Made by a program: the position numbers and the translations under genes. The notes under the pieces were generated by a model. That model was not told the DNA's origin. It did not search any database and saw only the letters and a list, made by a program, of their open reading frames with translations. Shown here piece by piece: positions 3,524 through 42,311 of a DNA stretch of 45,391 nucleotides. Source of the DNA: Candidatus Avispirillum sp. (GTDB lineage: Bacteria; Bacillota; Clostridia; Oscillospirales; CAG-272); contig JAZUGU010000080.1 in assembly GCA_045641325.1 (NCBI GenBank), forward strand, positions 1 through 45,391, in the 5' to 3' direction. The number at the start of each line of letters is the position of its first letter. Position 1 is the first letter of the stretch.

Positions 3524-5422
3524 TTATGAATTGAATTCTTCGGGACTTCTGTACGTCGGTACAACATCCTTCATGACGTTCTTCAGATTTTCTTCGCTTC
3601 CGTTCTCAACGGCTTTGCGAAGGATATCAAGCTTCTTTTCGATTTCTCCGTCTTCAAGCTGTTTATCACGTTCAATGAATATAAGCTCATTGTCAGTCTT
3701 GTCAAGCTCTTCTGTTTTCACAAGAAGCTCTTCATACAACTTTTCTCCGGGGCGAAGTCCGGTTTCCACAATAGCTATGTCTGTCTGTCCGCTGAGCTTG
3801 ATCATATTCTCGGCAAGATCGAGGATCTTGACGGGCTTGCCCATATCGAGTACAAACAGCTCTTTGTTTTTAGCCATAGCTCCGCTTTGCAGCACAAGCT
3901 GAGCTGCTTCGGGAATTGTCATGAAATACCGTATTATACGCTTGTCCGTAATGGTAACGGGACCACCGGATGCAATCTGTTTTTTGAACAGAGGGATAAC
4001 GCTTCCGGCGCTTCCCAATACGTTTCCGAAACGAGTCGCAGAACAAGCCATATTGCCTTTGTGATTGAGAACTATCATCTCGCATACACGCTTTGTAGCA
4101 CCCATCACGTTAGTGGGATTTACGGCCTTATCCGTGCTGACCATGATAAATTTCTCAACATCGTACTTTTCGGAGACTTCAACTGTGTTAAGCGTACCGA
4201 AAACGTTGTTTTCAACAGCCTCTATACAGTCATCCTCCATAAAAGGAACGTGCTTGTGAGCGGCTGCGTGAATGACGACCTGAGGACGGTATTTATTAAA
4301 TATGCGTTCCAGGCTGTGTACGTTGCATATGGAAGCGATGACAACCTTAATATCAACTTCATCACCCATAGCAATTTTCAGCTCCTGCTGAACCTCATAA
4401 GCGCCGTTTTCGTATACGTCAAGAATGATCAGCTGCTTCGGGTTCATTTTTGCAAGCTGTCTGCACAGCTCGCTGCCGATACTGCCGCCGCCGCCGGTTA
4501 TGAGAACGACTTTATCCTTATAGTATTCACCGGTAACGTCGTTGGTAACGTCAAGAGGTTCTCTGAACAGAAGGTCTTCTGCATCAAAATCACGGAGCAG
4601 ACGCTTTCCGCCTGCCGCCTGCATCATGGGAAAATCGTAAACCTTCAGTTTATAGCCGAGATCCTTATATTTCTCGTAAATCGCTTTTTTGTTTTCACCG
4701 CTGAGCTGAGGAACGGCAAATATAATTTCCTGCACCTCATGATTTTTCAGATTCTTTGCTGTATTATCATCCTCGGGAAATACGGGGAGATTATAGATTT
4801 TTCTGCCGATTTTAAGCTTATTTGTCTCGATGAAGCATCTGGGCGTATAGGTCGCATGCTCATTATTGAGAAGTTCTTCCGCAAGGCTGACACCGACACG
4901 GCCGGCACCTACAATGGCAACTCTGATTTTCTGACCGTCAGCATGCGGATGGATCTGAACTTTCCCGCCGGAAACAAATTTGAGAAGTCCGCCGAATCTG
5001 CCGGTCTTATAAAAATATCTGTATATCATCCTGATGGCAAGAGCTGCCAGACAGTTTACACAGATAAATGCAAGTACGAGAGTGAAAGTAAATGTTTCAA
5101 CGATTCTGAAATCATTTACGAAGTTATATACGATGAATGCACATCCGTCCGAAAACAGCAGACGTATGTAGCACTGGATGCCGCCGTATCTCCAAATCTG
5201 AGTATAAATACCGAATAAGAATCTGAAAAAGAAGATGCACACAAATGAAACTGCGGCATGATACAGAACTCCTCTGAATGACAGAGCTCCGAGGAAGCAG
5301 TACGATCCGAGAAGGACTACTACTACTGCAAGAAATACAAAAATATCATACAGAAATAAAAGCCACCTGATGGTACCGCTTTTATTGCCGAATATTTTTT
5401 CCGCAATCTTTTTTATTTTCAT
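3524..5422 (-). CDS. Membrane-anchored UDP-sugar 4,6-dehydratase (CapD/PglF-like polysaccharide biosynthesis protein)
   Basis: 4 N-terminal TM segments, GAGRVG, ITGGGGSIGSELCRQ, HAAAHKHVP, STDKAVNPTNVMGATK, RFGNVLGSAGSVIP; RBS AAAGGGG before ATG 5422. Confidence 0.92.
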   Translation of the reverse strand: MKIKKIAEKIFGNKSGTIRWLLFLYDIFVFLAVVVVLLGSYCFLGALSFRGVLYHAAVSFVCIFFFRFLFGIYTQIWRYGGIQCYIRLLFSDGCAFIVYNFVNDFRIVETFTFTLVLAFICVNCLAALAIRMIYRYFYKTGRFGGLLKFVSGGKVQIHPHADGQKIRVAIVGAGRVGVSLAEELLNNEHATYTPRCFIETNKLKIGRKIYNLPVFPEDDNTAKNLKNHEVQEIIFAVPQLSGENKKAIYEKYKDLGYKLKVYDFPMMQAAGGKRLLRDFDAEDLLFREPLDVTNDVTGEYYKDKVVLITGGGGSIGSELCRQLAKMNPKQLIILDVYENGAYEVQQELKIAMGDEVDIKVVIASICNVHSLERIFNKYRPQVVIHAAAHKHVPFMEDDCIEAVENNVFGTLNTVEVSEKYDVEKFIMVSTDKAVNPTNVMGATKRVCEMIVLNHKGNMACSATRFGNVLGSAGSVIPLFKKQIASGGPVTITDKRIIRYFMTIPEAAQLVLQSGAMAKNKELFVLDMGKPVKILDLAENMIKLSGQTDIAIVETGLRPGEKLYEELLVKTEELDKTDNELIFIERDKQLEDGEIEKKLDILRKAVENGSEENLKNVMKDVVPTYRSPEEFNS

Positions 5423-34177: not shown

Positions 34178-34309
34178 TTGGAAACAAATCCTCAAAAACT
34201 ATTGAAATCCGAGAAAATATTATGTATAATGAACTGTCTCGTGTCATTATTATTTTATAACACGTTACTATAATTGTCAAATATTTTTTATATACTGAAA
34301 GGGATAAAA

Positions 34310-35512
34310 ATGAAAGTACTTGTAGTAAACGCAGGCAGCTCTTCGCTGAAATATCAGCTTTTTGATACTGCCGCAAACACCGTTCTCGCAAAAGGTATCT
34401 GTGAGAGAATAAAGATCGACGGCCGCATCGAGCACAAGCTTCCCGACGGCACAAAGATCAAAAAGGACATTCCCATGCCCGATCACGCAGTTGCAACTCA
34501 GATAGTTATCGACTACCTGACCGATCCCGAATTCGGATGCATCAAGGATATGAGCGAGATCGAAGCCGTAGGACACAGAGTTGTCCATGGCGGTACTTAC
34601 TTCACCAAGTCCACACTCGTTACCGATGAAGTTGTTGAAAAGCTCCGCAAGTGCGTTGACTTTGCTCCTCTTCACACCCTTGCTCACATCATGGGTATCG
34701 AGGGCTGCACGAAAGCAATGCCCGGCGTTCCCCAGGTAATTGTTATTGACACCGCATTCCATCAGACCATGCCTCCTCAGGCTTATACCTATGCTATTCC
34801 CTACGAAATGGCAAAGGAATATGAGATCCGTCGCTACGGTGCACACGGTACTTCCCACAGATTCGTTTCTCAGGAAATGTGCAAGATCCTCGGCAAGACC
34901 GAAGGAACAAAGGTAGTTACCTGCCATATCGGTAACGGCTCATCCATTTCCGCTGTTAAAGACGGTAAGTGTATTGACACCTCCATGGGTATGACTCCTC
35001 TTGCAGGCGTTATGATGGGAACACGCTGCGGCGATATTGACCCTGCTGTTGTTACCTATATCATGAAAAAGACCGGAAAGACCCCCGACGAGATGAGCTC
35101 ATTCATGAACAATGAGTGCGGTTTCCTCGGCGTTTCCGGAATTTCTTCCGACAGCCGCGATATCGAAGCTGCTATTCTTAAGGACGATGAGAGAGCTTAT
35201 CTCACCGCTACCACCCTTGCATATCAGGTCAAAAAATATATCGGCTCTTACGCAGCTGCAATGAACGGTCTTGATGCAGTTGTATTTACGGCAGGCATGG
35301 GTGAGAACAACCCCGAGCTCAGAGAGAGAGCCTGCACGGATATGGAGTACCTCGGCATAAAGATCAACAAGGATGTCAATGCAGCAGCACATCATCAGCC
35401 CAACATCGTTGAGCTCTCAACTCCCGATTCAAAGGTAAAGGTTTACCTTATCCCCACGAATGAAGAGCTTATGATAGCAAGAGATACTGAAGATATCGTT
35501 GCAAATCTCTGA
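34310..35512 (+). CDS. ackA: Acetate kinase
   Basis: VNAGSSSLKYQL, GHRVVHGG, DTAFH, HIGNGSS, MGTRCGD, TNEEL. Confidence 0.97.
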   Translation: MKVLVVNAGSSSLKYQLFDTAANTVLAKGICERIKIDGRIEHKLPDGTKIKKDIPMPDHAVATQIVIDYLTDPEFGCIKDMSEIEAVGHRVVHGGTYFTKSTLVTDEVVEKLRKCVDFAPLHTLAHIMGIEGCTKAMPGVPQVIVIDTAFHQTMPPQAYTYAIPYEMAKEYEIRRYGAHGTSHRFVSQEMCKILGKTEGTKVVTCHIGNGSSISAVKDGKCIDTSMGMTPLAGVMMGTRCGDIDPAVVTYIMKKTGKTPDEMSSFMNNECGFLGVSGISSDSRDIEAAILKDDERAYLTATTLAYQVKKYIGSYAAAMNGLDAVVFTAGMGENNPELRERACTDMEYLGIKINKDVNAAAHHQPNIVELSTPDSKVKVYLIPTNEELMIARDTEDIVANL

Positions 35513-35523
35513 TATAAACGTTG

Positions 35524-35800
35524 AAAGTGCCGCACGTTAGGAGCCCTCACATAGGGAGAGAGGCGCCGCTGATTGTTCGTTCTGAATACCGTCGGCGTAA
35601 CAGCCTAAAGGCTGAGGTACGGCAGGTGTTCAGAACGAACAAAGGAAACATATAATTAAATGACCGCAACTTTCGTTTCGGTCATTTTTTCATTAGATAT
35701 TCGGAAATTTTCCCACCGTTCTTGGTTTATTAGTCTTTTTTCTCTTTCCGGTCGGCGGTGAAAAAATCCCTATGTGTGCGCTCCGTTTGTGCGGCACTTT
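35524..35800 (+). repeat. Structured interspersed non-coding element, copy 2 (core 35540-35784)
   Basis: Nested stems: AAAGTGCCGCAC/GTGCGGCACTTT, GGAGC/GCTCC, CACATAGGGA/TCCCTATGTG, CGCCGCTGA/TCGGCGGTG, 18-bp TTGTTCGTTCTGAATACC/GGTGTTCAGAACGAACAA, AAATGACCG/CGGTCATTT. Confidence 0.92.
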
Positions 35801-35816
35801 TTTGTTTAAAACGAGG

Positions 35817-35845
35817 TTGACAAAATGTTGTTTAAGTTATATAAT
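35817..35845 (+). promoter_or_regulatory. Consensus sigma-A promoter of the glycan-precursor operon
   Basis: TTGACA-17 nt-TATAAT. Confidence 0.85.
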
Positions 35846-35877: not shown

Positions 35878-36564
35878 ATGAGTGTTGCTCTTGAAGGTAT
35901 TGCACCTGAGGATGTTCTTTCTCTTGAAAAAATCGAATATAAAAAGCCAGCCTCCGCATATTTGTTTTTCAAGCGTTTCTTTGATCTGCTATTCGCAATA
36001 ATTGCCGTTATCATACTATCCCCGCTGATGCTCATCGTTGCAATTGCAATAAAGCTCGAGGACGGAGGCCCGGTTATACATAACAGAATGTGTGTCAAAG
36101 CTGACGGTTCACTTTATAAAATGCACAAGTTCCGCAGTATGAAGACCGATGCGGATTCTCTTGAAAAATGGCTTTCCCCTGACGAGATCAAACAGTTTTA
36201 TGCAGAGGCGAAAATCGAAAACGATCCCCGTATTACAAGATGCGGTAAAATCATAAGAAAGCTCAGTATTGATGAATTGCCCCAGCTGTTCTGCATTATT
36301 GAGGGCACGATGAGCTTTGTAGGTCCCCGTCCCATAACGCCGCAGGAAACCATTCATTACGGGGACAAGCTCTCAATGGTACTTGAGGCAACTCCCGGTC
36401 TTACCGGCAACTGGCAGGTAAACGGAAGAAGCGATTGCTCCTATAAGAGCCGTAAAAGGCAGGGGCTTGAGCTCTACTATGTAGCAAACAGATGTCTTTC
36501 ACTTGACATAAAGATTTTCTTTAAAACCTTCAAGGTCGTTCTATCGGGAGAAGGTGCCAGATAA
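35878..36564 (+). CDS. Initiating sugar (phospho)transferase, bacterial sugar transferase family
   Basis: KRFFD + TM, KFRSM, DPRIT, SIDELPQL, MSFVGPRP, PGLTG.WQV.GRS. Confidence 0.92.
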   Translation: MSVALEGIAPEDVLSLEKIEYKKPASAYLFFKRFFDLLFAIIAVIILSPLMLIVAIAIKLEDGGPVIHNRMCVKADGSLYKMHKFRSMKTDADSLEKWLSPDEIKQFYAEAKIENDPRITRCGKIIRKLSIDELPQLFCIIEGTMSFVGPRPITPQETIHYGDKLSMVLEATPGLTGNWQVNGRSDCSYKSRKRQGLELYYVANRCLSLDIKIFFKTFKVVLSGEGAR

Positions 36565-39725: not shown

Positions 39726-40289
39726 ATGGATTACAGAAGCGGAATTAAGAATTATCTTTCCCGTGTTGCAGATATTGTAAATTCCCTTGATACAAACGAA
39801 ATCAACGAAGCCATCAACGCCATCTGCGATGCAGGTGACAGAGGCGCAGTCATATGGGTCATGGGAAACGGCGGCAGTGCCGCAACAGCGTCCCATATGG
39901 TATGTGACTTTTCAAAAGGGGTATATCACTCCCCTGCCGGAAAAAGATATGATTTCAGATGCCTTTCGGACAATACTCCTATTTTTACGGCTATTGCCAA
40001 TGACGTTTCCTATGATGATGTCTTCTATTTACAAATCAAAGACATTATAAAGCCTGAAGATCTGGTCATTGCCATATCAGGAAGCGGCAACTCCGAAAAT
40101 GTGATCAAAGCCTGCAAATACGCAAAAAGCGTCGGGACTCCCGTTGTCGGAATGACCGGATACAATGGAGGAAAGCTCGACCCGCTTGCGGATTTCAAGC
40201 TTCACGTTCCCGTAGATGATATGCAAATCACAGAGGACGTGCACATGATATTTGACCACATGATAATGAAAATTCTCAGCAGCAGATAA
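39726..40289 (+). CDS. gmhA: Sedoheptulose-7-phosphate isomerase (SIS)
   Basis: GNGGSAATASH, TAIAND, ISGSGNSENV, EDVH. Confidence 0.88.
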   Translation: MDYRSGIKNYLSRVADIVNSLDTNEINEAINAICDAGDRGAVIWVMGNGGSAATASHMVCDFSKGVYHSPAGKRYDFRCLSDNTPIFTAIANDVSYDDVFYLQIKDIIKPEDLVIAISGSGNSENVIKACKYAKSVGTPVVGMTGYNGGKLDPLADFKLHVPVDDMQITEDVHMIFDHMIMKILSSR

Positions 40290-40290
40290 A

Positions 40291-40569
40291 AAATCCCGTC
40301 AGACCCGGATATCCGGTTGCGGAGCTTCACTTCGGGATATTTTCACCGCTGACTGGAAAGAGTAACAAGAATAAATATCAAAAAACAGTGGGAACATTCC
40401 CTAATAGCTAATGAAAAAATGACCGAAACTCGTGTTTCGGTCATTTTATTATATCTTTCCTTTGTCCGTTTTGAACGCCTGGCGTACCTATGTACGCCGA
40501 CGCCGCTTCAAAACGAACAATCAGCGGCGCCTCTCTCCCTAAGTGGACGCCCCTTTCTGACGGATATTT
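40291..40569 (-). repeat. Structured interspersed non-coding element, copy 3 (core 40321-40553)
   Basis: Reverse complement reads GGGGCGTCCACTTAGGGAGAGAGGCGCCGCTGATTGTTCGTTTTGAA...TTCAAAACGGACAAAGGAAAGATATAATAAAATGACCGAAAC...TCAGCGGTGAAAATATCCCGAAGTGAAGCTCC, colinear with copy 2; fills the whole gmhA-rqcH intergenic space. Confidence 0.92.
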
Positions 40570-42311
40570 TATTCTTTCATCGATTCAACTTTTGCTTTAT
40601 CCACATTTACCGTCGCAGACCAGTTAGTGTGGTATATAACGTATCCGGGCTTTGATTCCGGAGGCTTTTTAATATTGCGTACCTTTGTGTAATCAATTTC
40701 AGCAGACGTCATATCGCAGGCTTTTGAATAAACAGCTGCTATCATGGCGGCATCCGTAAAATCATCAACAGACGGCTCGGGAAGTCCTACGCAGACCATG
40801 ATCACATGTGAGCCCGGCATGTTTTTGGCATGAAACCACCAGTCGTTTCTATCGGCCTTACGGAAAGTAAGCCAATCGTTTGCAGTGTTGTTTTTACCGC
40901 ACAAAACAGTATAACCGCCGCCGGTCCTGAAAGTGATATATGAGGGTGTTTGCTGCTTTTTATCGATAAACTGTCTGAATTTGGATGCGTAGCCGCTGTG
41001 ATAAAGCTCACTTCGTATCTCAGACATTTCTTTTTCCGTGACGGCGTGAGAAAGAGCCTCGCCTACACTTTCTATATACGAAAGCTCTGATTTTGACAGC
41101 TCAATTTGTTTTGAAAGGTGTTCTTTTGCCGATTTGGATTTTGCATATCTCTTATAATACCGCTGCGCGTTTTGAGCAGGTGTCAGCCTTGAATCAAGAG
41201 GTATGTTCACCTCATCACCCGTGTTATAGTCGACAAGAGCGGCGCCCGTCATGCCCCGTTTCAGACAATAAATGTTTGCTGTGACAAGATCGCCCCAGAG
41301 TCTGTATTTTTCACCTTCTGCGCAATCATCAAGTTCTTTCAGCTGAATAGACAGTTTTTTCTGTATCCTTGCCGTCGAATTGGCTATGATTTTCTGAATA
41401 TCCGATGCTTTCTGACTCAGCTTTTCATCGCGGCTTTTTTCCTCAAAATATACGTCGAGCATCTGTCCGAAAGTATCATATATGACACATTTATAATCTT
41501 TTCCGTACTGCTCAATGGAAAAAAACGAGTATTCGCGCGGTTTTCCGTTTTCGTCAAAAATCACATTGGGTAAACCGTTGTGAGAGGCAATATTATCAAG
41601 CATTGTGAAAAAGCTATCACAGAGAGTCGCAGAACACTCTCTGAGTGTTGCAGATGAATGCCCTCCGCATTTATGAGCAAGCTCCCGCGCCGCAAGAGGA
41701 GATATTCCGGCAAACGCAGATACAATGAATTTCTCGCACAGTCTCTCCGGATCAGCACCGGCGAGTCTGTTAAATGTATCTTTATCAATTGTAAACGGGT
41801 CGAGTTTATTTTGCCTCGGCGGCAATTCATATATCATCCCGGGAAGCATCTGGCGCCGGCTGCTGTCTGTGAAATCGATCTGTCTTAAAATATTAATGAT
41901 TTTTCCGCTGTCATCTGTGAAAACGATATTCGAGTACTTCCCCATCATTTCCACAATTATGTGCATCTTTTTTCTGAATCCGAGCTCATCTGTCGTATCA
42001 AAAACAAGCCTTGCCGCACGTTCAAAGCCAAGCTGCTCCGCACATTCAAATATTGCGCCCTGCAGATGCTTTCTGAACAGCATACAAAGCATGGGGGCCT
42101 TCATGGGATTTTCGGATTTCTGCTCCGTCAAACCTATGCGGGGGCATCTTGAACCGGCGTTTACAAGCAATCGTCTTGAGCCCTCTTTGCCTCTGATAAT
42201 AAAGACGAACTCGTCTCTTGCAGGCTGATATATTTTTTCAACTCTTCCGCCGCCGACGTACTCATTGATCTCATTGATGACAAACGAAAGCATCCCTGCA
42301 TCAAAAGCCAT
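40569..42311 (-). CDS. rqcH: NFACT family protein (RqcH/FbpA)
   Basis: MAFDAG, KIYQP, EMMGKYSN, NAQRYYKRY.K, GKNN..ND, WFHAK.MPGSHV, IDYT. Confidence 0.92.
   Translation of the reverse strand: MAFDAGMLSFVINEINEYVGGGRVEKIYQPARDEFVFIIRGKEGSRRLLVNAGSRCPRIGLTEQKSENPMKAPMLCMLFRKHLQGAIFECAEQLGFERAARLVFDTTDELGFRKKMHIIVEMMGKYSNIVFTDDSGKIINILRQIDFTDSSRRQMLPGMIYELPPRQNKLDPFTIDKDTFNRLAGADPERLCEKFIVSAFAGISPLAARELAHKCGGHSSATLRECSATLCDSFFTMLDNIASHNGLPNVIFDENGKPREYSFFSIEQYGKDYKCVIYDTFGQMLDVYFEEKSRDEKLSQKASDIQKIIANSTARIQKKLSIQLKELDDCAEGEKYRLWGDLVTANIYCLKRGMTGAALVDYNTGDEVNIPLDSRLTPAQNAQRYYKRYAKSKSAKEHLSKQIELSKSELSYIESVGEALSHAVTEKEMSEIRSELYHSGYASKFRQFIDKKQQTPSYITFRTGGGYTVLCGKNNTANDWLTFRKADRNDWWFHAKNMPGSHVIMVCVGLPEPSVDDFTDAAMIAAVYSKACDMTSAEIDYTKVRNIKKPPESKPGYVIYHTNWSATVNVDKAKVESMKE

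Follow-up and report, generated by a model that had tools for sequence, protein, structure and literature searches.

What kind of element occurs three times in a single contig, encodes no protein and keeps its base pairing while its sequence drifts? The contig is JAZUGU010000080.1 of Candidatus Avispirillum sp. (assembly GCA_045641325.1), and the window in what follows is the whole of this 45,391-nt stretch. It is contig C80 of genome G000, a 1.91-Mb assembly in 172 contigs that is 96% complete, and the genus is filed under Clostridia incertae sedis. An initial annotation, made from the sequence alone, proposed either a structured RNA family or a mobile element. Both halves of that proposal found support, the first in a fold that covaries across genera and the second in insertion behavior (empty sites, patchiness, nesting and arrays).

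Here we report that the three copies belong to a single local subfamily within a large superfamily: interspersed non-coding repeats, 210-350 nt long, of gut Clostridia. The element is multicopy, nested and sometimes tandem, its fold is conserved by covariation across genera, and it constitutes a new order-wide family of structured, terminator-associated non-coding repeats. We consider it probable that the repeats are non-autonomous mobile elements that target the structure of intrinsic terminators.

Results

Two full copies (B and C) and one cut copy (A) of a 236-nt core lie in the window, colinear when read and aligned. All three copies described by the initial annotation are recovered both by alignment and by nhmmer, with a core profile built from 30 full copies in G000. 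The core runs from AGGRGC to GCYCCGT, and the flanks outside it differ at every locus. The spans first given for the full copies, 35524-35800 and 40291-40569, do contain them, but their ends take in flanking host hairpin arms. A count of three copies in 45 kb is correct for the window and understates the genome, which holds about 60. At more than 85 bits, G000 has 64 nhmmer matches (38 complete, 21 cut by contig ends, 5 otherwise partial) that total 13,250 bases, or 0.69% of the genome, and identity to copy B ranges from 75 to 97% across copies.

As first described, the element has no conserved open reading frame (ORF). ORFs that start with ATG reach a median of 26 aa at their longest and show no conservation, and the only recurrent ATG opens frames of 0-42 codons, with a 4-codon stop in 8 of 41 copies. 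A small protein gene beginning at an ATG in hairpin P5, with the Shine-Dalgarno-like AAAGGAAAG upstream, is ruled out by these frame lengths and early stops.

RNAalifold, run on 41 copies from G000 and G029 (alignment A2), recovers the multi-way junction and nested stems of the initial annotation and gives 64 pairs, 9 of them with compensatory changes. The first and last ~35 nt are complementary and form P1-P3; the termini are thus inverted repeats. The examples of pairing-preserving differences quoted earlier hold across the 41 copies at column pairs 13/241 (A-U 23, U-A 11, unpaired 7), 44/97 (C-G 25, U-A 15) and 4/250 (A-U 22, G-C 10, G-U 6, A-C 3). They also hold in P3, where the changes are only of the wobble-tolerated kind (U-A 21 and U-G 20; G-C 33 and G-U 8). 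One P7 position reads A-U in 31 copies and C-G in 9. Part of the apparent compensation within G000 is lineage sorting and not repair within a copy, because the genome contains two end sub-families and mosaics that mix them (C64, C168, C158, C117) and lose some pairs.

[quoted passage not shown] The structure would then be the terminal repeats of a classical DDE insertion sequence (IS) plus chance palindromes. Comparison across genera argues otherwise. We aligned 35 copies from other genera (34 distinct rows; A3) to R1, a covariance model of the whole element, an alignment in which pair counts lean towards the structure. Standard pairs fill 93.1% of 1744 cells, compared to 64.6% after shuffling (0 of 500 shuffles get as high) and 42-48% in slid controls with partners moved by 1-3 columns. 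Changes on both sides occur in 59 of the 64 pairs, and single positions show up to five pair types across genera. In the internal long-range helix P7, pairing holds in 100% of cells and all 5 pairs covary; in the hairpin P4 the figures are 94% and 14 of 15. This covariation, together with targets that are hairpins of unrelated sequence and the failure to find a parent IS with these ends with the seven enzyme families searched, makes a decayed MITE very unlikely.

The fold is also strand-specific. G-U or U-G cells outnumber A-C or C-A cells by 210 to 14 in A2 and by 105 to 33 in A3, and two or more such cells occur in 14 versus 3 columns (A2) and in 14 versus 6 (A3). Because G-U outnumber A-C, the structure is selected on one strand of a single-stranded molecule, the + strand. 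In copy B this strand folds at -129.4 kcal/mol (z = -10.65, 0 of 200 shuffles as good), which is better by 15 kcal/mol than the - strand (-114.6 kcal/mol, z = -9.78).

No known RNA family accounts for the fold, as the initial annotation had surmised. Rfam 15 gives 0 matches at gathering score in the window or in 15 loci, and there is none for members from G000, G168, G075, G091, G131, G288, G209, G248 and G038. A permissive scan of copy B returned chance hits only, as did scanning of four canonical members at E up to 1. Riboswitches, ribozymes, introns, HEARO, raiA, Clostridiales-1 and others were rejected on this basis, as no Rfam 15 covariance model scores at threshold. A K-turn in the P4 internal loop was judged by eye and does not fit the consensus.

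What the initial annotation missed is that all copies lie within predicted terminator hairpins of the host. The flanks of one copy are complementary to each other: to the left an A-run precedes a GC-rich arm, and to the right a T-run follows the arm that matches it. Among 31 of the 38 complete copies (7 lie too close to a contig end and were dropped), the left/right flank duplex has a median energy of -18.1 kcal/mol, compared to -11.2 for 930 mismatched pairs. Energies of -14 or lower are reached by 22 of 31 copies versus 25% of controls (Mann-Whitney p = 2.4e-7). Because flank-to-flank complementarity exceeds that of mismatched pairs, each copy probably sits in the loop of a different intrinsic terminator of the bidirectional type. 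The host arms and P5 each have the sequence features of a predicted terminator, a GC-rich hairpin and a T-run. At C72:740 and C98:32 the left flank is common and the right flanks differ, only that of C98 being complementary to the left; this pattern points to recombination between copies or to an assembly chimera.

Relatives reveal what some of these sites look like without the element. G009, a genome of the same genus with no copies, has a 42-nt plain two-tier terminator between the SIS and NFACT genes; the corresponding spacer in the window is 272 nt. A plain terminator also occupies the convergent junction at C138:49499 in both G009 and G029, though G029 has the family elsewhere, and G009 has one at the C134:16152 junction as well. 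After its acetate kinase gene, G009 likewise has a plain terminator and then the same sugar transferase gene (a comparison limited to loci in + orientation). The genomes with empty sites are ~75-81% identical in the flanking genes and their stems have diverged, and these are orthologous sites, not exact pre-insertion sequences. Because orthologous sites in relatives carry plain terminators, the copies are insertions, and at the level of sequence comparison this shows the element to have entered predicted terminators that already existed. The C64 insertion has the same flank as a copy in G029 and may be ancestral.

A short tandem-like motif, CTCTTAAAACTTAA..., lies ahead of the terminator at several element-bearing loci (G000 C64 ~5190-5250; G029 L034, L037 and L099).

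Outside the genus, the usual arrangement runs from a host terminator through a small hairpin of two terminal-like arms and the element to the same host terminator again, the whole terminator hairpin being directly repeated on both sides. The element itself has the order P2, P3, P4, P7, P5, an AT-rich variable stretch, P7', P3' and P2', and often ends in ...GACAGTCTGA. By reading of the flanks, the whole terminator is duplicated in 7 of 8 copies in one set and in ~5 of 11 in another, and in 10 of 68 metagenome copies the duplication shows as palindromic repeats, unique and 19-37 nt long, at fixed offsets. Another subfamily has a solo copy of its own 3' end ahead of the element, or head-to-tail arrays. 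G131 has an array of three 251-nt units, two of them identical, G168 has three-unit arrays twice, and metagenome contigs have unit spacings of 217-239 nt. In G029, two copies lie head to tail, 2 nt apart, within one terminator hairpin (C15:1604-2079, L097). G000, G029 and G168 have a T-run after P5, whereas G091 and G131 lack it; because it is not kept in all genera, the role of the P5 hairpin is primarily structural, and it is a predicted terminator in some of the lineages only.

For 23 copies in G000, crude ORF calling finds a neighbor on both sides: 16 lie between convergent genes, 2 in tandem pairs in the same orientation, 3 in tandem pairs in the opposite one and 2 between divergent genes. 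A convergent-junction bias of this kind resembles that of REP elements in the available portion of PMC3184786. It is one of two observations that would favor a REP- or BIME-like role in double-stranded DNA, as a platform for a nucleoid protein, gyrase or a regulator that spreads by recombination. The other is the P4 apex, GSCGTAC-N4-GTACGSC, a perfect inverted repeat of invariant sequence that could be a dimer site. However, the lower P4 stem, P7, P5 and P1-P3 keep their pairing and not their sequence, and an asymmetry of 210 to 14 between G-U and A-C would be meaningless in duplex DNA. We regard a duplex-DNA role as highly improbable.

The search beyond G000 covered mostly incomplete metagenome-assembled genomes (MAGs). 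Of the other genomes in the genus, 1 of 31 has the local subfamily by blastn; of those sampled from other genera, 0 of 29 do. The subfamily's most conserved 22-mer is found in one other MAG (Candidatus Avispirillum sp.) among 185,579 species and has 0 exact stretches in the JGI metagenome collection, and phage and plasmid collections gave no blastn match. The covariance models reach much further. R1 matches 20 of 150 other genomes of the family, with full-length, multicopy matches in G168 (at least 14), G075 (9), G091 (8), G131 (6), G034 (5) and others. R2, which models 72 positions of the P4 hairpin, has matches in 22 of 150 other genomes from an order-wide sample; these represent 11 of 30 families, and counts are high in G209 (at least 32), G288 (28), G248 (21) and G215 (20). 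A degenerate apex pattern is present in at least 120 contigs from metagenomes, and human gut metagenome is the title of many of them. Members in single copy lie in ordinary intergenic regions, with no adjacent mobility gene in the ORF listing. One member lies at ~520-900 of a 5978-nt IMG/VR contig (L189), with a choline-binding-repeat gene on one side and genes for large terminase, portal, scaffold and capsid on the other; it is possible that such a phage is a vehicle for transfer between hosts.

Could the element be primarily a functional RNA, embedded in 3' untranslated regions (UTRs) and terminators and multiplied because it is useful, with mobility secondary? It might insulate convergent transcription, protect against 3' exonucleases, or be a protein-binding or sponge RNA. 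The diversity of pair types across genera, the conservation of the P4 apex and internal loop across the order and the strand-specific G-U excess are all consistent with such a role, as are the single-copy members in ordinary intergenic regions. Read-through from upstream would also transcribe an element at a gene 3' end. However, orientation is not tied to the upstream gene: in tandem contexts, 2 copies run with the genes and 3 against in G000, and 5 and 5 in a wider set. The initial annotation was therefore right about the wobble excess, but its placement on the strand of the upstream gene is not confirmed, and its suggestion of selection on an RNA read from that gene is not supported because orientation does not follow the neighboring genes. 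For the same reason a full-length + strand RNA would often not be made; it requires outside read-through and so can come from only part of the copies, and no conserved promoter exists outside the fold. Patchiness within one genus (1 of 31) also counts against a primary RNA function, and 20 to 60 copies, tandem arrays and nesting are typical of selfish repeats. One RNA run lacks cover over the element, which we treat as uninformative, as the organism is barely present there. The orientation data favor a role in the element's own life cycle, as a single-stranded intermediate or the target of a strand-binding protein, over host selection on each 3' UTR, and we judge a primary RNA function unlikely, though an RNA-level role deserves serious weight, whether in place of mobility or alongside it.

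High copy number has left its mark on the assembly. Three DNA runs contain the locus; there, the element has a summed contig depth 10 to 100x that of its flanks, and in the best run depth is ~1004 over the element and ~8 over the flanks. Of 344 contig ends in G000, 27 lie inside a copy, and the repeat is a main cause of fragmentation of this assembly.

Self-BLAST of G000 joins 186 repeat intervals in one component, and two further repeats occur in this genome. A second structured repeat of ~115-120 nt is nested in some copies of the main element and also occurs elsewhere in G000. The 120-nt form lies inside at least 5 copies, between P7' and P3' in G000 and G029. At its other loci it lies directly upstream, in reverse orientation, of diverse genes, among them peptide deformylase-like, HD-domain and Clp-like genes, and it ends in GAAAGGAA, which resembles a ribosome-binding site, ahead of the start codon. 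The second repeat has no Rfam match and may be a mobile 5'-UTR or promoter module. A third family, ~380 nt long, GC-rich and with many local hairpins, lies beside terminators and is also without an Rfam match.

Coordinates are collected in Table 1. Pfam identifies the genes on either side of copy B as acetate kinase (34274-35512) and sugar transferase (35878-36564). Copy C lies between convergent SIS-domain (39726-40289, +) and NFACT (40569-42311, -) genes, and copy A is followed by a convergent flavoprotein gene (169-729, -). Directly after copy B, at 35817-35845 and upstream of the sugar transferase gene, is a consensus sigma-70-type promoter (TTGACA, 17-nt spacer, TATAAT).

Table 1. Element copies and their parts in the window, and loci of the second and third repeats in G000
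Feature	Position	Strand	Remarks
Copy B, complete 236-position core	35539..35786	+	nhmmer model 1-236, score 258; R1 257.7 bits; in alignments A1 and A2
Copy C, complete core	40318..40554	-	nhmmer 40322-40554, model 1-232, score 230; projected end ~40318
Copy A, 3' part, truncated at contig start	1..136	+	nhmmer model 98-233, score 129
Copy B, host terminator left arm: A-run and GTGCCGCAC, then 3 loop bases	35524..35538	+	Outside the repeat; sequence unique to locus; complementary to 35789-35797
Copy B, 5' strands: P2 35548-35557, P3 35564-35572, unpaired GAGAGG between	35548..35572	+	P2 pairs with 35767-35776, P3 with 35752-35760
P4 long hairpin	35573..35642	+	Apex GSCGTAC-N4-GTACGSC, the superfamily's most widely conserved part (core model R2); flanking CGTC/AGAG; 12-nt insertion at the tip in copy B
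P7 5' strand, GGAAA	35644..35648	+	Pairs with 35745-35749
P5 GC-rich hairpin, A-run before, T-run after	35657..35691	+	Terminator-like in both directions
3' strands of P7, P3, P2 and P1	35745..35786	+	Core ends in GCTCCGT
Copy B, host terminator right arm GTGCGGCAC and T-run	35787..35803	+	Complementary to 35527-35535
Copy C, host terminator right arm TCTGACGG at 40296-40303, T-run, small inner hairpin CCGGATATCCGG	40288..40317	-	
Copy C, host terminator left arm CCGTCAGA at 40556-40563	40555..40567	-	Directly after the NFACT stop codon
Second repeat	C161:4644-4763, C23:17492-17611, C122:9884-10003, C114:732-844, C125:1939-2052, C105:4590-4702, C52:10573-10677		
Third repeat	C41:8529-8934, C17:3214-3642, C106:56-452, C136:120-535, C131:810-1179, C127:783-1151		

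Discussion

We propose a model in which the repeats insert into or beside intrinsic-terminator hairpins by virtue of hairpin structure and not sequence. An enzyme acting in trans would move the element, and joining would take place at an extruded (cruciform) terminator. Joining in the loop, as suggested for G000, would duplicate at most 2 nt or nothing at all, whereas the stem-foot joining suggested for most other genera would duplicate the whole terminator. P1-P3 would draw the ends of the element together, allowing the host arms to pair ahead of the T-run, and P5 would supply an internal stop. Because the host arms could still pair and P5 would add a stop, insertions would be nearly harmless and would accumulate at gene 3' ends. 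The strand-specific fold would then have one of two sources: an intermediate that is single-stranded and of fixed polarity, or a fold on the + strand that binds a protein.

Several observations weigh against such a mobile element. Orientation has no bias relative to GC skew (18 to 25; the skew is weak and contigs are short) or to the majority gene strand (11 to 12; contigs again short), and because bias is absent there is no sign of a single-stranded DNA mechanism linked to the replication strand. A 2-nt flank match in 12 of 19 copies in G000 is mostly TT, tracks the end sub-family and may be part of the element itself. The junction chemistry is unproven because no exact empty/filled pair was found within one species; contigs from public runs contain no joint that skips the element, a result we treat as uninformative. 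A cut-and-paste element with terminal inverted repeats also has no need of an order-wide P4/P7 junction, which fits an RNA or protein-binding function equally well.

The search for a mobilizing enzyme counts on the same side. It covered seven enzyme families; MAGs lose repeats, so absence is weak evidence. Y1_Tnp and TnpB are in 0 of 2 genomes (G000 and G029), and RVT_1, IS110 DEDD and DDE_Tnp_1 are in 0 of 5 multicopy carriers. The family rve is in 1 of the 5 (G091), within an IS481-like element that has unrelated inverted repeats. In the order sample, Y1_Tnp is not enriched (8 of 23 carriers, G000 included, versus 56 of 151 genomes overall), and neither is DDE_Tnp_1_6 of the IS1182 type (3 of 23 versus 20 of 151), which is absent from G000. 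The longer, ORF-carrying copies (HUH, TnpB, reverse transcriptase or other) for which the initial annotation had advised a search are found in 0 of 68 metagenome copies.

These data count against several specific partners and origins. A remnant of an IS200/IS605 PATE or omega RNA was rejected, given the lack of Y1 and TnpB genes in G000 and G029 and termini that are inverted repeats; PATEs derived from IS200/IS605, unlike our element, have subterminal hairpins and no terminal inverted repeats, and belong with Y1 TnpA/TnpB. An IS110 bridge-RNA remnant was rejected for want of a DEDD gene in all five carriers and because target sequences are unrelated, and a retroelement for want of RVT_1 in the same five. 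IS1182 is not a convincing partner, as it is not enriched among carriers and IS1182-like loci lack the element's end motifs; nor is the rve gene of G091, as the IS481-like element is bounded by its own inverted repeats. An integron attC-like reading, raised by GTT at both junctions, does not suit copies that are dispersed and not in cassette arrays, and attC recombination would not duplicate a host hairpin.

Class C group II introns insert after intrinsic terminators by recognizing the stem-loop, and are ribozymes of more than 600 nt with a domain V and usually a reverse transcriptase. Our element shares the homing to terminators but has no Rfam intron match and no RVT_1 in its five carriers, and it lies in the loop or with a duplicated hairpin, not simply downstream. 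REP and REPIN elements are mobilized by RAYT, whereas Y1/RAYT genes are absent from G000 and G029 and are not enriched among carriers. We know of no mobilizing enzyme for ERIC either. Terminal inverted repeats, the lack of a transposase ORF and the many copies (64 strong matches) recall a MITE; unlike for a MITE, no parent IS with the same ends was found with the seven enzyme families or among the 68 metagenome copies, and IS481-like and IS1182-like loci have unrelated ends.

The closest parallel in insertion behavior is IS1272, an IS1182-family element of staphylococci. According to the available portion of PMC5678879, its targets are inverted-repeat structures that vary in size and sequence and often lie just downstream of genes; it makes no classical short duplications, encodes its own DDE transposase and replaces the target stem-loop. 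The model given there is attack on a cruciform, in which joining at the 5' feet duplicates the whole stem-loop and joining in the loop duplicates only the loop. On that description, our element resembles IS1272 in targeting stem-loops irrespective of sequence and in showing both modeled outcomes. It differs in having no ORF, in keeping the hairpin (as arms on either side) or duplicating it instead of replacing it, in its unrelated ends and in a conserved fold that is far more elaborate.

Other small repeats share parts of this behavior. As portrayed in the available portion of PMC3184786, REP, BIME and REPIN elements are also non-coding and hairpin-forming, with many copies at gene 3' ends and convergent junctions and with composite and tandem forms, but REPs are simple hairpins of 20-40 nt compared to our 236-nt multi-helix junction. 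The same portion lists the MITE-like repeats ERIC/IRU, Correia, RUP, bcr1 and SPRITE (a Rho-independent terminator-like element), which are likewise small and non-coding with inverted termini and long stem-loops, some carrying terminator-like hairpins. As described there, they differ from our element, which lies within host terminator loops or duplicates whole terminators and has a branched junction conserved across an order. No published description of the family was found in the literature searched, although the catalogue of PMC8040213 may list it; the portion available gives 3161 candidate RNAs from human microbiomes, 250 of them palindromic and 230 of those with terminators.

In a more radical variant of the mobile-element model, the element would be a mobile nucleic acid of a new kind, self-sufficient or dependent on a host enzyme, and its active core would be the conserved P3-P4-P7 junction, which has an invariant apex and a CGUC/AGAG internal loop. 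Its folded single strand, RNA or DNA, would recognize terminator hairpins by shape and steer its own integration with no dedicated transposase, as in ribozyme- or guide-based elements, and would have spread in this way through an entire order of human-gut Clostridia. We think this quite unlikely. On present evidence the element is of a known kind, combining bacterial small interspersed repeats with structure-dependent insertion, and does not call for a new category.

Taken together, these observations describe a widespread structured element without database annotation that is associated with dozens of terminators per genome in common gut Clostridia and alters the 3' ends of many genes. It provides a natural case of insertion directed by structure instead of sequence, with both of the outcomes predicted for cruciform targets. 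The two covariance models, R1 and R2, now permit a hunt for its partner by phylogenetic profiling. If the fold keeps terminators working around a 240-nt cargo, the element would also be a ready scaffold for terminator engineering.

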